A stretch of 64,000 nt of DNA from sequence record LR597647; one strand, 5' to 3'. How positions within the stretch are numbered: position 1 is the first letter of the stretch; each line of letters opens with the position of its first letter. The notes below the pieces were generated by a model. It did not search any database, was not told the DNA's origin, and worked only from the letters and a program-made list of their open reading frames with translations. A program made the translations under genes and the position numbers. This DNA is from Escherichia phage rV5_ev147. This document shows, piece after piece, positions 4,731 to 34,733 of this stretch.

Positions 4731-5549
4731 TTGAGCAAGAAAGAGTCCAACGACAAATACTACACAAACCCTGAGTATGCAGAATATCTTGTTGGTAAAG
4801 TAAAAGATAAGTATGGGAATTGTGCATACGTTGAGCCTTCTGCTGGAAGGGGTTCTTTTTCAAAACTATTTTCAGAGATACTGTCGTACGATTTAGTACC
4901 AGATCCTGAATTTGAAGGACCAACACCGTGCATTCAGGCAAACTTCTTGGAGGTGCATCCCAAGGCAGATGTCTTCATAGGTAACCCACCATTTGGCAAG
5001 AATTCATCCTTAGCTTGCAAATTCTTTAACCATTGTGCATCATTGCTAGAGCTTGGAGGGGCTATAGCCTTCATCTTGCCACGGACATTTGAAAAAATAT
5101 TTTTTGCAAACAAACTGGACATGTCGATGCACCTTGTCTACAGCGAAAGGTGCCCTAAGAATTCGTTTTTACTTAATGGCAAACCTTATGACGTGCCATG
5201 TGTTTTCCAAATTTGGGAGAAAAAGGCGTGCAATAGGGATCCTGTAGAGATTGGAGAGAATAAGTTATTTTCTTTTAGCACACCAGATGACTACGACTTC
5301 TGTGTAAGACGTGTTGGGTATAATGCTGGAAAAGTATTGGGGGATGATGACCCAAAATCTGAAGAATCAACATATTTCATAAAATCTTTAGTTAACGGTG
5401 TTGACAGAGTGTTTGCTGAATGCTATTCTTCTTTTCAAGAAGAAGCAGGTAAGACTGCTGGAATGAAGAGTATAGGTAAGAAAGAACTACAATACATTTT
5501 GGAGACCAGGTATGATCAAAAGCATAGACTTGACCAAAGAACTTACTGA
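4731..5549 (+). CDS. DNA N6-adenine methyltransferase (TTG start)
   Basis: AdoMet motif VEPSAGRGSF and catalytic IGNPPFG; GGAGG RBS 5 nt before TTG 4731. Confidence 0.7.
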   Translation: MSKKESNDKYYTNPEYAEYLVGKVKDKYGNCAYVEPSAGRGSFSKLFSEILSYDLVPDPEFEGPTPCIQANFLEVHPKADVFIGNPPFGKNSSLACKFFNHCASLLELGGAIAFILPRTFEKIFFANKLDMSMHLVYSERCPKNSFLLNGKPYDVPCVFQIWEKKACNRDPVEIGENKLFSFSTPDDYDFCVRRVGYNAGKVLGDDDPKSEESTYFIKSLVNGVDRVFAECYSSFQEEAGKTAGMKSIGKKELQYILETRYDQKHRLDQRTY

Positions 5550-30406: not shown

Positions 30407-30615
30407 TCAACACACATGCATCTGAAGAGACATCCGAAGGAGTGACCATCTGTCCCTTGGCCGAGCCGGGGAAAGAGGAAAACTTCGATTCTGAAGATTC
30501 TCCATCTCCGTCCCAGGTAGACCCTGAGGCTGATGACCTGACGTGGGAGGACATCGTAGACATCTGGTTCTCTATTATGCCTGAGCACGAAGAGTTCAGA
30601 GGTGGTAGACTATGA
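30403..30615 (+). CDS. hypothetical acidic protein
   Basis: ORF collinear with plus-strand arm. Confidence 0.4.
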   Translation: MINTHASEETSEGVTICPLAEPGKEENFDSEDSPSPSQVDPEADDLTWEDIVDIWFSIMPEHEEFRGGRL

Positions 30616-30736
30616 AGCACCGAGCCCACACCGGTTCCTCATGCTAAAGCATGGCCTGAAGAGGCAAACGTGTATAATTCCTGTGCATTAGAACGTATAA
30701 AACCCTGTTCACACTTTCATTCCCAGAGGAGATTTT

Positions 30737-30952
30737 ATGAAGATAGAGATATTTGGTGGAGCTGACAACACTCGTGGCCTGATTTACCTTGAATTCGATG
30801 AATCATACCTGCCAGAGGTGTTAAATATAGACTCTGTTGCTGAGGCTTTGGGAGTAAACCCTAAAGAACTCCACTCTTGTGCTGAGATCGATGGTTGGGA
30901 AGAGACCATGAACATTGATTTCAGTGAAGTAGAGGATGAACCGCTGGACTGA
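30737..30952 (+). CDS. small acidic protein (family 1-like)
   Basis: RBS agaggag; MKIEIFGG, acidic C-terminus. Confidence 0.45.
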   Translation: MKIEIFGGADNTRGLIYLEFDESYLPEVLNIDSVAEALGVNPKELHSCAEIDGWEETMNIDFSEVEDEPLD

Positions 30953-32423
30953 CACACAATTAGCTGCCCGGCTAAAGTGCTGGAAGCACCTATAACACAT
31001 CTTTCAACTAAATTTCCTACCACCACAATCACTTACCTCCCACACATGACTGTTTGCTTGTTTAGTGAGCAGTCATGCCTTGACATTCTTGCCTATCCTG
31101 ATAAAATTAAGTTCTTCTCTTTTCTTTTACCGAGTAATTCGGGTTTTCTGTTCTCTTCGGTTTGAAGGGGTATAGAGATACACCTGAGTGAACAGGGTGA
31201 ACAACCGAACCATTAGCTATGGCATTAGCATGGCGAAGCGGACGGGTGACGAAAGAGGGGCCGGAGGACACCAGTCACTGCCATATGATATATGGGTGAT
31301 AACCTGAAGAGTCTGAATAAGTGTTTAAGTACCAGTCAGAGGAAAAGGTGAATGGTAGCCGAAGGGGGGGAGGGGGGTTTCTTGTATCTTTAATTTGTAT
31401 ATTATGTATACACTTGTAAACCAATCTAATCTGAATCTGTTTACCACACAAAGCGGATAGAGACAAATATTGCCTATTAAACTTGAATTATTTATAGAAA
31501 ATACCACAACACCCCTTAAGTCTTTGATTTTACACACAAATCCTACAGATATTCAACCTCCATATTTAACATACTTGTAACATATTCCATACTCTACCTG
31601 TCTGATCAATTTCCCCAACTACATTCTCATATTTTCCCTGTCTGTACTACCCCTGCCCCGCCGGGAGTCCCGTCATATCTGGCTTTCCAGCAAATATCAC
31701 ACCCACAAATATCATTGCCTGAAGAGGGTTTCATCCCATAATACCTGCCTTACCTGAAGAGCGCTTCATACACCACGTAAATTTTTTAATTGACCTCCCC
31801 CTGCCCCGCCGGAGAGGTTGGCTTTTCCCACACAGACCTGAAGAGTCAGCCAGAAATATCTGAATAGGCCCAATTCTACCACGATTTTGACCTGACCTAC
31901 AGGGAGGCCCGAAGGGTCTAGCTTTCAGCTAGAGTCCTTGCAGGACCTACAGGAGCGCTGCCAGGCGGACGGAATGGGAATACTTCTCATTCTTATAACA
32001 ATTCTCAAATATCGAGGCAGTGAGAGAAATTAATAGGCCAGGCCGTTCACACAGTGGCACAACATTTGCAACCTATTTTGTGTGGATGAATGAGAATACC
32101 TATCATTGTGAGAACTGTTATCATTACGGGCAATTTAACATAATACCCATTATGCGCACCACTGGCGATACATACAAGGATTGATAACATGAGTTACAGT
32201 TTACGCATATAACAATCATATTTCTTACTATTTGTGTGGGATATAGTTAGCAGCCAATAGATTAGATATTGACCTGCGGACTTCCAACCGTCTAGACGTC
32301 TAAACGCCCACACAACAAGGATTATACATACATTACTGAATGTAAACAGGACCGCAAAAATGCTACCATACCAGTTTGTAAATTTTTCATGCAGCACTTG
32401 ACAAAGAGGAGGAAAACTTGTCT

Positions 32424-32475
32424 GACATAATGGTGACATAACTGACACGATTGACATAATTGACATGCCTGACTG
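32424..32475. repeat. iteron array: 5-6 direct copies of TGACA(T/C) at 9-11 bp spacing
   Basis: copies at 32424, 32435, 32444, 32452, 32461, 32470. Confidence 0.5.
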
Positions 32476-32520
32476 TTCACGCTCTCATTATTCCCGCCCT
32501 TACTATTCACGCCCTTTACT

Positions 32521-32610
32521 GCTTACATTCTTGATAGTCTACATGCTTAATGGTTTACATGACTAATAGTTTACATAGCTAACTGTTTACGCATAAACTG
32601 TTTACACAGA
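32521..32610. repeat. iteron array: about 6 copies of (G)TTTAC(A/G) at 15-16 bp spacing
   Basis: copies near 32523, 32540, 32555, 32570, 32586, 32601. Confidence 0.5.
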
Positions 32611-32618
32611 TATGATAA

Positions 32619-32910
32619 GCCATGCCATTCGTTTGCATGATAACAATAACGATCAACAACAATAAAGACTGAAATGATAACGTTGTTGATTTGACTGACT
32701 AACAATTAACAGGCTAATAATCTATGACATAATATAAAAGCAGGGCAACTATTAGCAGATCTATAGTTGCCTTGCTTGTTATGTCATGATTAACTAAATA
32801 CAAGGCAACTATGATCTGATTAATAGTTTGCAGACAAACTATCACGGGGGTGATGGTTACTGCTTTTATATTATGTCGCGACTCCGTCGCGCCATGCCAT
32901 TCGTTTGCAT
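32619..32910. repeat. 252-bp palindrome-rich segment flanked by perfect 20-bp direct repeats GCCATGCCATTCGTTTGCAT
   Basis: DR at 32619-32638 and 32891-32910; nested inverted repeats inside. Confidence 0.5.
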
Positions 32911-33571
32911 AGTTGCCTTATTGTTACAGATAAAATAATTGTATTGTTAATTATTTCTTATCTTTCTATTAGTCATCTAATGATTCCAGTTAGTATAGTA
33001 ACGTACAGTAAACATTAGACGACTAAAGATTTCTCTGATTATGATAACTTGCCGTGACAATTTCAGACTGTTTACGAAAAATGTTGACACCTGAGCTGAT
33101 TTATGTTATGCAATTTAAACGAATAATTATTTTATGCAGGTATTGACTATTCTGTTATTCTATGGTCGGAATAAATACTTAGCAGGCTATAGAATGGTGA
33201 GCGTACGTAAATTCTGAGATCTGTCGGCTATAGTTATACTCGATTTTTCACGTAGAACACGCTTTTTGGTTTGTGTAAGTGTATGACTTATAAAGATTTT
33301 TAGTTGTTGACAAGATATTGAAGATGTGCATCAGGTTAAATTTTGTGCAATAGCTGCATTACGTGCAATTTTGGAAGGAAAACGGGTAAAAATAGCACCG
33401 CTACCACACAATGAAAGGTTATGCAATAGTTATTTTACATGTATATTTGTACAGTGTGTGGGATTGATGGCTCGTCAATTATTCCACTTGCCAGGTAGGG
33501 CCGTTTATGGTAGGGAGGAAGAGCAGACAAAAAGAAAGGGACCTAAGCCCCTTGATAATTCAGTTAAAAAA

Positions 33572-33991
33572 TTATAATGATTCGTATATTTCAAAAATCC
33601 GATTTGCCAGGTCGTTACGGTACCGGAATTTTTCATCACGTTTGATCATAAGATCTTTATAGCCGTACTCTTTAAGCACTTCATTAACTTTATGGCGGCA
33701 CACCTTCATATTATCCTGAGCGTCACCAATAAACCTGTTGCTATGGTGCATGGCTTTAATTTCTTCTTCCAGGACCAGGGCAACTATGCGGACCGGATCA
33801 AGCTGATAGGCGGTAACATCCATGCGGCATTGTAAACGGCTTTTTACGTCTGCCACCGGATATACTGCAACCTCTTCCCCGTCAACATTGACAATAATTA
33901 GTTTACCATCGATTTCGAATCCTTTCGCCGCCGGACCGTGACAAAAAGCGTTATCAAAGCTATATGCCGGATTATTAGATTTAATGTTCAT
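33572..33991 (-). CDS. hypothetical protein
   Basis: first gene of minus-strand arm. Confidence 0.45.
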   Translation of the reverse strand: MNIKSNNPAYSFDNAFCHGPAAKGFEIDGKLIIVNVDGEEVAVYPVADVKSRLQCRMDVTAYQLDPVRIVALVLEEEIKAMHHSNRFIGDAQDNMKVCRHKVNEVLKEYGYKDLMIKRDEKFRYRNDLANRIFEIYESL

Positions 33992-34134
33992 GGTGTTTTT
34001 ACCTCTTAGTTAATTTTCTTACAACTTCCCTTCAAAAAAGAATATAGCAAAACTGCCGATCCCTGTCAACCAGGGATAGCATAATTTTTATGTGATCAAG
34101 GGGCTTTAAGCCCCTGACCGTGCACCTTGTTGTA

Positions 34135-34398
34135 TTATTTGTTGCTCATCCAGTTTTCCCAAGCTGCCTGATAATCTGCCTCACTACGGCGGATCTCTTC
34201 TTGCTCTTCAAGTCGGATCTCTTCTTCCAGGTACCCCAAGATGTCAGCCTTTTTGGTCTGGCGTAGCATCCAGTCATCTTTTTTGCGAGTGAAGATCTTA
34301 TAAGCTTTCTCGCAAACCTCTTTTTTGCTACCTTTCTGGACTTCAAGAACACGATAAGCCATATATTGAACTAATTTGAGCTGATCAAGGCGTTTCAT
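34135..34398 (-). CDS. hypothetical protein
   Basis: RBS aaagaggaaaaac. Confidence 0.45.
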   Translation of the reverse strand: MKRLDQLKLVQYMAYRVLEVQKGSKKEVCEKAYKIFTRKKDDWMLRQTKKADILGYLEEEIRLEEQEEIRRSEADYQAAWENWMSNK

Positions 34399-34460
34399 GA
34401 TGTTTTTCCTCTTTATGTGGTTTTTGTTTAGTGGGCCTTTTGGCCCGTGTCATTATCTTA

Positions 34461-34733
34461 TTACTTACGGCGGCAGAATTCAAGCGTTTTTAATTGATAA
34501 TCTTCCTCAGCCTGGAGTACAACCGCCTCGATCATTTCGTTGGCATTGTTGAAGCCATATCCTTTAGCGAATTCATCCGCACCACCTTCGTGATCATGTT
34601 CTGCGTTCATCGCTTCCACGAAATGGAATTCAAGATTATTGAGATAAGGGCTTGATGTTCCGTCCTCTTTTTCGATGAGATCCCAAATAGCATTGAAACG
34701 TGATTCAACTTCTTGGTTAATCCAGCTTAACAT
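34461..34733 (-). CDS. hypothetical acidic protein
   Basis: RBS agaggaaa before ATG at 34733. Confidence 0.45.
   Translation of the reverse strand: MLSWINQEVESRFNAIWDLIEKEDGTSSPYLNNLEFHFVEAMNAEHDHEGGADEFAKGYGFNNANEMIEAVVLQAEEDYQLKTLEFCRRK

Follow-up and report, generated by a model that had tools for sequence, protein, structure and literature searches.

A covarying branched hairpin near the predicted left chromosome end of rV5-like phages, a candidate cis-acting DNA element

Known phage end signals and the position of the locus

T7-type chromosome ends are said to combine a short direct terminal repeat with arrays of short repeats, and an inverted repeat near the junction was reportedly proposed as a hairpin intermediate (work attributed to Dunn and Studier in 1983 and to Chung, Nardone and Hinkle in 1990). 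The lambda-type iteron origin is built of iterons, an A+T-rich region and a flanking palindrome. A palindrome lying between direct repeats can be lost through a precise-excision-type deletion by replication slippage, as in the excision of Tn5 and Tn10. We know of no processing intermediates for rV5-like phages. Few coliphages are isolated more often than these phages, which have a place in cocktails for therapy and biocontrol. In T5, a conserved untranslated region filled with repeats and palindromes spans the inner end of the left terminal repeat (10.1101/866236), and Vibrio phage ICP1 has its pac site, together with a late origin, in an ORF-less space (PMC7145576). The replisome of rV5-like phage includes a T7 gp4-like primase-helicase, as in T7 (PMC3606486). 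The searchable literature yielded no description of the hairpin-plus-tail element reported here, and no transcriptome or origin mapping of an rV5-like phage was found in it.

The element was examined in a window of 64,000 nucleotides from Escherichia phage rV5_ev147 (LR597647), to which all positions below refer. Its sequence shows 100% identity with that of Escherichia phage rV5_ev156 (LR694165.1, Vequintavirus), where the window position equals the record position minus 72384. The segment of interest (32619–32910) sits in a stretch of approximately 2.6 kb without credible genes, toward which the + strand genes stop at 30952 and the − strand genes at 33572. The ORFs annotated within this gap matched no phage protein family and no Pfam family above the cut-off, the flanking ORFs carry no Pfam domain and fall into PHROGs of unknown function, and neither a tRNA nor a tmRNA was found in the window. 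As to a DNA-binding protein encoded nearby, the flanking ORFs show no recognisable domain and are uninformative. The cumulative GC skew reaches its maximum at the gap. The same skew change was described in the rV5 genome paper, which linked it only to the switch of transcription direction (PMC3606486); since the maximum coincides with the coding-strand switch, it was discarded as independent evidence of an origin or a terminus.

The physical ends of the chromosome can be placed by comparison with phage EdH4, whose record holds an exact 459-bp repeat at both ends. The first 40 nt of this repeat match the window at 31964 (40/40) and the last 40 nt match at 32382–32421 (39/40), so that the equivalent of the direct terminal repeat is 31964–32422. 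Terminal redundancies of 458 bp were reported for the Vequintavirus phages EdH4 and HdK5 (Korf et al., PMC6563267). Furthermore, independent records break at the same positions, those of ECP2303 and EcoIv14a_Aya at 32422 and those of the bov phages and YN3, which start at 31964. Thirteen records hold the 31964–32422 stretch twice, and the hairpin core is duplicated in no record. The EdH4 repeat, the reported redundancies and the coinciding record breaks together indicate that the convergent, gene-free gap represents joined chromosome ends in a circular assembly. Inferred by homology, the termini of this phage would therefore lie at 31964 and 32422, which maps the physical ends on the genome and makes the convergent intergenic gap an end-to-end junction. 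The 20-bp direct repeats or the core itself were also considered as the terminal repeat and rejected, because they are never duplicated at record ends and only 31964–32422 is. On this map, the segment lies 656–947 nt from the left physical end and approximately 200–490 nt inside the inner boundary of the terminal repeat, starting 197 nt in. The corresponding elements of EdH4 are located at 593 and 824 for the 20-mers and at 659 and 793 for the hairpin arms, spanning 593–843 nt from its left end. A terminal repeat of 514 bp (116,316–116,829) was published for Klebsiella phage KPP-1, and PhageTerm assigned it to the T7 type (PMC9862379); it is located in the gap that corresponds to this one. The distance from the end of the terminal repeat to the hairpin is 309 nt in KPP-1 and 304 nt here. 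Features of a packaging or end signal were thus found in the form of ends that are fixed and carry a short direct terminal repeat, as in EdH4, and cis elements placed near the boundary at a fixed distance. PhageTerm reports for Vequintavirus conflict with each other, having called circular permutation (PMC8407724), headful pac packaging (PMC13211470) and short terminal redundancy (PMC6563267).

From the repeat boundary rightward, the order of parts is a TGACATAA array, iterons, direct repeat copy 1, an A+T-rich spacer, the hairpin core, its tail and direct repeat copy 2. The 9-nt TGACATAA array occupies 32423–32470 (+ strand; period 9 and 4.7 copies in Tandem Repeats Finder), adjoins the terminal repeat with no base between them, and the gap holds five of the seven genome copies of this unit. 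It is followed at 32470–32612 (+) by about nine tandem iterons of 15–16 nt with the core ACTGTTTAC / TGTTCAC, which are the only such cluster in the genome and are hypervariable among strains. The spacer at 32639–32725 (+) is variable, consists of short TAACAA/TGACAA-type units and has a G+C content of 0.32; an additional G+C hairpin module is found in it in many relatives.

Such an arrangement resembles T7-type ends in its short direct terminal repeat (459 bp here), in the arrays that start at the repeat boundary and in a hairpin-forming inverted repeat that is at most a few hundred bp away from the junction. It differs in that the hairpin is on the left-end side, much larger, branched and provided with a conserved tail, and no sequence similarity is expected. 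The order of tandem iterons, A+T-rich spacer and large palindrome also recalls the lambda-type origin, whereas the absence of an adjacent initiator gene, the hypervariable iterons and the sub-terminal position set this locus apart. In comparison with Repeat Region 3, or the injection stop signal, of T5, the terminal repeat of T5 is approximately 10 kb long, and Repeat Region 3 carries eight ordered DnaA boxes, none of which exist here. ICP1 is likewise a large lytic myovirus; its replication proteins are of the T7 family, and a gene-free space exceeding 1 kb lies at its packaging terminus. It is, however, a headful packager with no branched conserved hairpin described, so that the comparison is by analogy only. 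T7-type ends, T5 and ICP1 are to be taken as the closest functional and positional analogues, not as sequence relatives.

Repeats and folding of the hairpin core

The two direct repeat copies, GCCATGCCATTCGTTTGCAT, are exact at 32619–32638 and 32891–32910 (both +), the second beginning 13 nt past the right hairpin arm. No further site of this 20-mer exists in the 136-kb genome, even when 4 mismatches are allowed. Between them lies an exact 18-nt inverted repeat, whose left arm GACATAATATAAAAGCAG (32726–32743, +) is the complement of the right arm CTGCTTTTATATTATGTC (32860–32877, +). In 60 dinucleotide-preserving shuffles of 31500–33600, direct repeats did not exceed 14 nt and inverted repeats did not exceed 13 nt, compared with the 20 and 18 nt observed. 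The 9-nt motif GGCAACTAT was located in both orientations, at 32744(+), 32763(−), 32804(+) and 32909(−), which are 4 of its 9 genome copies against 0.14 expected. Two short palindromes with GATC in the spacer are built on these sites: palindrome 1, GGCAACTAT-N10-ATAGTTGCC, at 32744–32771, where the substitutions of relatives fall in the spacer or loop, and palindrome 2, GGCAACTAT-N10-ATAGTTTGC, at 32804–32831, 60 nt from the former. The remaining half-site (ATAGTTGCC on the + strand) at 32909–32917 (−) overlaps the end of copy 2 and enters the right flank. This locus is the only place in the 136-kb genome with any of the following: the 20-mer, the 18-mer, the TGACATAA array, the ACTGTTTAC iterons or the GGCAACTAT palindromes. 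The first-pass annotation had claimed perfect 20-bp direct repeats, an 18-bp inverted repeat pair, GGCAACTAT-type sites in both orientations and short palindromes between the repeats. Each of them was recovered, and the repeat observation is stronger than was stated there.

A point missed by that annotation is that the nested repeats jointly form a single branched hairpin with a 152-nt core at 32726–32877. When folded as RNA, the + strand of this hairpin has a predicted energy of −79.2 kcal/mol (z = −11.3) and the − strand one of −72.2 kcal/mol (z = −10.2); the segment 32619–32910 folded as DNA gave −58.9 kcal/mol (z = −7.9). In the global fold, the left arm of palindrome 2 pairs with the right arm of palindrome 1. 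The 3′-side branch is a hairpin, AACTATCAC-GGGG-GTGATGGTT, at 32837–32858 (+), whose loop has one G more in phage Murica. A conserved tail, GTCGC-N6-GTCGCGCCA, follows at 32875–32894 (+), sharing its first bases with the right arm and its last ones with copy 2. The motif GACAYAAT, to which the TGACATAA units belong, is found at the base of both hairpin arms and also in direct repeats upstream. The inner minimum-free-energy fold is less certain than the outer stem, because the polymorphism C32756A disrupts a pair predicted for the long-range palindrome-loop pairing with no compensating change.

From the geometry, the first-pass annotation had suggested a cruciform-forming origin core or a small insertion. 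Of this suggestion, the hairpin-forming potential of the core is supported by the covarying outer stem and the shared topology of related folds (see below), but the insertion reading is not. Arms 82–188 nt apart are not easily extruded from duplex DNA, a point against a hairpin that acts as DNA. The two wobble pairs found in this phage both read G.T on the + strand, and the + strand fold was slightly more stable in 5 of the 6 sequences folded and also in KPP-1. This preference and these wobbles would also suit a + strand RNA, which calls for caution when the hairpin is read as DNA.

Conservation, covariation and the fate of the direct repeats

The core was detected in 117 of 119 Vequintavirus phage records, 109 of them with at least 95% identity; ten records at 80–90% identity have a 32-nt insertion at the hairpin apex. 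Conservation per 50 nt is 0.98–1.00 across 32750–32900, which is the maximum of the gap, as compared with 0.28–0.59 in the iterons and 0.32–0.65 in the spacer, where the value of 0.32 comes directly after copy 1. Both hairpin arms are invariant in the 19 Vequintavirus sequences compared that carry the element, and substitutions and indels of the core are confined to loops, spacers and the apex. The spacing from copy 1 to copy 2 varies among relatives (213–339 bp), a consequence of the mosaic make-up of the spacer.

Related genomes had been proposed as a place to look for the same segment, and diverged homologues of the core were indeed found in six further lineages: the viral contig L035 (140.6 kb), Av-05 (Avunavirus), TH18, A73 and LTH01 (Septuagintavirus), Klebsiella phage KPP-1 (Mydovirus) and Pseudaeromonas phage KLEP7. 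Those other than L035 were detected by a search with the L035 junction and by inspecting the gap in phages that also possess the flanking 139-aa gene. When the gaps of Phapecoctavirus, Septuagintavirus and KPP-1 were aligned directly to the one studied here, almost nothing matched, and the homologues were reached only through the conserved tail and the anatomy of the inverted repeat. Position in the equivalent gene-free gap and orientation are constant in all lineages with the element. Its members have a perfect outer stem of 16–22 bp starting with GACAY, a contiguous inner stem, a variable apex and a 3′-side branch; the fold topology is identical in every lineage examined, and the TGTCGC...TCGCGCCA block is invariant across the seven lineages aligned. 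In phAPEC8, the topology is shared and the tail differs. The L035 contig has a perfect 17-bp outer stem (GACATAATAACGCTGAG / CTCAGCGTTATTATGTC), a branch hairpin AATAACAC-GGGG-GTGTTATT that is analogous to that of this phage with compensatory changes, and the tail GTCGCTCCCTCCGGTCGCGCCA. A hairpin-plus-tail that covaries and keeps a fixed distance from the repeat boundary is thereby defined from Escherichia phages to Klebsiella and Pseudaeromonas phages. Two kinds of pattern matches were set aside as chance, namely palindrome patterns in three contigs (L018–L020) with no similarity to the window and tail patterns in two MAGs of 65–68% G+C with no inverted repeat.

The outer stem was compared among four lineages, in a small, hand-anchored alignment; the arms had been identified separately for each genome, always as a perfect inverted repeat. 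All 17 of 17 pairs are Watson–Crick in all sequences, with no G.U pair. Nine of the 17 pairs are altered on both sides (15 cells), none is altered on one side only, and none is broken. None of 500 shuffles was as good, and controls with slid partners were 25–50% paired. Over the lineages, the perfect stems measure 17–34 bp and are strictly Watson–Crick. This indicates that the pairing potential of the outer stem is under selection, and that it is pairing, not sequence, that has been conserved across genera.

The flanking direct repeats have a narrower distribution, being found only in Vequintavirus and L035. In Av-05, TH18, KLEP7, A73 and KPP-1 there is no flanking direct repeat, the longest shared word being 7–10 nt. 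L035 carries an exact 21-bp direct repeat, GCGCCATGTTATCGTTGCATA, at nearly the same offsets, with copy 1 at 114 nt to the left of the left arm (107 nt here) and copy 2 at 13 nt past the right arm in both. The L035 and Vequintavirus repeats are identical within each genome and differ from each other by two substitutions and two 1-nt indels, all four of which are present in both copies. Same offsets with different sequence indicate a repeat pair that was inherited and then homogenised, not inserted separately. Copy 2 starts within the last bases of the conserved tail (GCCA...), and copy 1 is a duplicate of this tail-proximal sequence, placed about 110 nt to the left of the hairpin. Within Vequintavirus, copy 1 is exactly GCCATGCCATTCGTTTGCAT in 14–15 of the 19 sequences that carry the element. 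Position 7 is C in both copies in 14 sequences, this phage included, A in copy 1 and C in copy 2 in 3, and A in both in 1, and the change G1A occurs in copy 1 only in 1 sequence. The repeat is thus mostly, not invariably, perfect, and one variant can fill both copies, C7A being found in copy 1 alone or in both. The pair shows concerted evolution, caused either by gene conversion or template switching between repeats joined by the hairpin, or by common selection, for example through one factor that binds both copies.

An empty site, for which a search among relatives had been suggested, was found once in the 119 records, namely in FV3 (two records of one phage), which retains a single repeat copy with both flanks intact. 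FV3 is nested among close relatives with filled sites, and its copy is the A7 variant, as in copy 1 of isim and AlexBoehm. Since its nearest relatives are filled and the element is older than the genus, the site reads as a loss, not as an ancestral empty site. FV3 thus represents a deletion from one repeat to the other, as is classically seen for palindromes within direct repeats. This event is like the Tn5/Tn10-type excision in its arrangement of direct repeat, long palindrome and direct repeat, and in that exactly one copy is kept; it differs in that the 20-bp repeats here are not target duplications of a transposon and that the event is seen in FV3 only. The deletion may also be an artefact of cloning or assembly. 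Unless it is, the core is dispensable in the laboratory, as FV3 propagates without it, which counts against the role at the chromosome end proposed below.

These data bear on the view of the first-pass annotation that the segment could be a small non-autonomous insertion with a duplicated target, that is, a MITE-like or integrative element that duplicated 20 bp. Perfect 20-bp repeats flanking the segment and the clean, single-copy FV3 junction are what such an event would leave. The direct repeats, however, do not abut the ends of the inverted repeat (87 nt away on the left and 13 nt on the right), and the element occupies one place per record in 119 phage records. It is likewise unique in the 136-kb genome, so that the search for the same segment elsewhere in it, as had been advised, came out negative. 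No match was obtained in 5,426 E. coli genomes, and the sole plasmid match is a 137.5-kb record, as large as an rV5-like phage genome. Moreover, the core occurs without direct repeats in five lineages (Av-05, TH18, KLEP7, A73 and KPP-1), and the repeats of L035 stand at equal offsets with another sequence. The GGCAACTAT half-site at 32909–32917 is retained in FV3, which shows that this motif family exists both inside and outside the repeat-bounded segment, and the only empty site carries the copy-1-type variant of its relatives isim and AlexBoehm. Mobile insertion is hence extremely improbable. A MITE with target-site duplication was rejected specifically, as neither abutting ends, nor multiple or non-homologous copies, nor empty sites consistent with a gain were found.

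Possible functions and alternative explanations

On balance, we lean toward the view that rV5-like chromosomes carry a conserved, single-copy, cis-acting sub-terminal element that is inherited vertically, that the segment forms its core, and that this element acts as DNA at the chromosome end. At a concatemer junction, where this stretch would be single-stranded or strongly supercoiled, the hairpin could fold back as DNA. Together with the GACAYAAT and iteron arrays, it might then mark the left end for the recognition, cutting and duplication of the terminal repeat in packaging. The hairpin region might also, or instead, prime end-proximal replication through the T7-gp4-like primase-helicase of the phage. 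A role in packaging or end processing would be at least as likely as one in replication, because the hairpin lies approximately 300 nt inside the left terminal repeat and not at an internal site of the origin type. Repeats beside an A+T-rich region, which an origin would have, are present as the iterons at 32470–32612 followed by the spacer of 32% G+C; this is compatible with an origin and not specific to one. DnaA boxes are not enriched in the gap of this phage, and no initiator gene is recognisable among the flanking ORFs. The 20-bp repeats, a lineage-specific feature, would be held alike by gene conversion or common selection and would serve as the substrate of the slippage deletion that removed the palindrome in FV3.

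The preference for DNA over RNA comes from the perfect, strictly Watson–Crick stems with no G.U in the outer stem, from the lack of a conserved promoter upstream of the left arm, and from the recurrence of GACAYAAT as upstream direct repeats and at both arm bases. The promoter-like sites of the window are absent in EdH4 and in relatives with a differing spacer. A search of Rfam 15 gave no match at E ≤ 1 in 30500–34500 and none on the element in Av-05, KLEP7, KPP-1 and EdH4.

The main competitor is a structured noncoding RNA from the + strand, of about 150–170 nt with a shape like a three-way junction and a single-stranded 3′ tail containing CUCC/CCUCC, which would act in trans or as a decoy. 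A very stable fold (z = −11.3), strong covariation, and a + strand favoured in 5 of 6 folds with its wobbles as G.U are all properties expected of such an RNA. Also present in the window are an extended −10-like site, TGACATAAT, and a hairpin with a T run that resembles a terminator. In many relatives, the element is closely preceded by a terminator-like G+C hairpin, which would set it apart as a transcription unit of its own. The −10-like site, however, is within the left arm, and a transcript starting from there could not build the covarying outer stem; no conserved promoter precedes the arm, and the TG of the extended −10 is missing in Av-05, KLEP7, A73 and KPP-1. The T run past the branch hairpin is not kept in L035, Av-05 and KLEP7, perfect duplexes of 17–34 bp without any G.U are unusual in RNA stems, and no Rfam family matches. 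We therefore regard an RNA as unlikely. The T runs TTTTATATTAT (TTTTATATT) after palindrome 1 on the − strand and ACTGCTTTTATATT (CTGCTTTTATATT) after the branch hairpin on the + strand, which give the element the look of a terminator on both strands in Vequintavirus, could belong to a compound bidirectional terminator or insulator, which would block transcripts from both ends in a circular or concatemeric genome. In the joined form, the + and − gene blocks run toward each other at this site, and terminators are annotated here in the Murica and Alma records, that of Murica being a − strand terminator on palindrome 1. Against this, the gene blocks have terminator-like sites of their own at a distance (31130–31142 and 33553–33536), and L035, Av-05 and KLEP7 have not kept the T runs, in contrast to the outer stem and tail. 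Termination would also leave the near-invariant sequence, the conserved tail and the fixed distance of approximately 300 nt from the boundary unexplained, and this reading is improbable.

Still less probable is an entry signal like the iss of T5, in which a region rich in repeats and palindromes inside the leading terminal repeat pauses or anchors the incoming DNA. Three perfect DnaA boxes in the equivalent gap of L035 are in its favour, but the gap here has no enrichment of such boxes, and the T5 model is itself a hypothesis. Two-step injection is, to our knowledge, not described for rV5-like phages, which also counts against an entry signal.

Returning to the sub-terminal DNA element, a bolder version can be offered as a tentative and rather doubtful proposal. 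The hairpin with its GTCGC..GTCGCGCCA tail might represent a previously undescribed, telomere-like class of sub-terminal signal in Vequintavirinae and their relatives, in which a single-stranded fold-back of DNA (or a transcript) would direct the duplication of the terminal repeat or prime replication of the left end, and in which template switching promoted by the hairpin would keep the 20-bp repeats identical. The element of approximately 170 bp is a precise target for tests of packaging and replication, for which designs with compensatory mutations are obvious, and it bears on what synthetic or rebooted genomes must keep. For annotation, the ORFs in the gap are probably spurious, circular assemblies conceal the termini, and the palindrome is losable by slippage between the direct repeats.

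Variation at the hairpin apex and in the preceding spacer

The apex of the conserved hairpin (32726–32877) tolerates insertions. A 32-nt insertion, AACATCCTCGAGACGAAGGCTATGCCTGAGTT, was located between positions 32778 and 32779 in rV5, phita32, and A112b, and in about 10 records in total (including the relatives' sequences L007, L012, and L013), and the apex of the homologous hairpin in Av-05 is larger than that in TH18. The variable spacer directly before the left arm, at a site homologous to 32680–32720, carries in many relatives (L002, L003, L007, and L011–L014) a G+C-rich double hairpin module composed of GCTGGCTATGCCAGGTGACCTTTGGTCACCCCTTCGGGTG followed by TTTCT, which is absent from rV5_ev156. 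This module looks like a terminator acting on the + strand. A hairpin of the same topology as that of rV5_ev156 was also found in phAPEC8 (Phapecoctavirus; L021, 5504–5649), where the outer stem is formed by GCTAATAATAAGCCA and TGGCTTATTATTAGC, and the branch hairpin AACCATCACCGATGGTT is similar to AACTATCACGGGGGTGATGGTT of rV5_ev156. The tails of the two hairpins differ, and the phAPEC8 gap is flanked on both sides by genes running in the same direction.

Terminal repeat and untranslated end regions

A block of approximately 37 nt, ATTACGGGCAATTTAACATAATACCCATTATGCGCAC (32123–32159), lies inside the terminal-repeat equivalent (31964–32422). Apart from this block and the hairpin tail, no stretch of the gap can still be aligned to KPP-1, A73, LTH01, and one metagenome contig, and the KPP-1 counterpart of the block is located within the published terminal repeat of that phage. 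This block may be a conserved signal within the terminal repeat. Two hypothetical-protein ORFs, 32020–32184 (+) and 32194–32466 (−), are annotated in LR694165.1 inside the same terminal-repeat equivalent, one of them crossing its boundary. Neither was called by other annotators, and neither gave a PHROG match or a significant Pfam match; they are probably not genes.

Strong strand asymmetry was observed in two stretches. The + strand is C-rich and G-poor at 31400–31900, where the GC skew falls as low as −0.56, and the − strand is C-rich and G-poor at 33000–33500, where the + strand skew rises to +0.27. Each region belongs to the untranslated tail of an end transcript that reads outward, and both therefore resemble Rho-utilisation sites. 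The right-end untranslated region (31300–31860) also contains repeated modules, namely four copies of CCTGAAGAG and two of CCCCTGCCCCGCCGG.

DnaA boxes in contig L035 and doubtful database labels

DnaA boxes were detected in the viral contig L035 (IMGVR_UViG_3300045988_159287; locus minus strand, 5345–5384 and 5529–5537), which has three perfect boxes (TTATCCACA) in 40 nt and a fourth near-match close by. They are located about 480 nt to the left of L035 copy 1, the first copy of its 21-bp direct repeat, roughly corresponding in position to the TGACATAA and iteron arrays of rV5_ev156; no DnaA-box enrichment was found in the window's own gap.

Eighteen records labelled "Campylobacter phage" (marked UNVERIFIED) are approximately 90–96% identical to this coliphage region. 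The core is also matched with 100% identity by CP057073.1, a 137.5-kb record labelled as an E. coli "plasmid" that looks like the genome of an rV5-like phage. The host or replicon type of these records is probably mislabelled.
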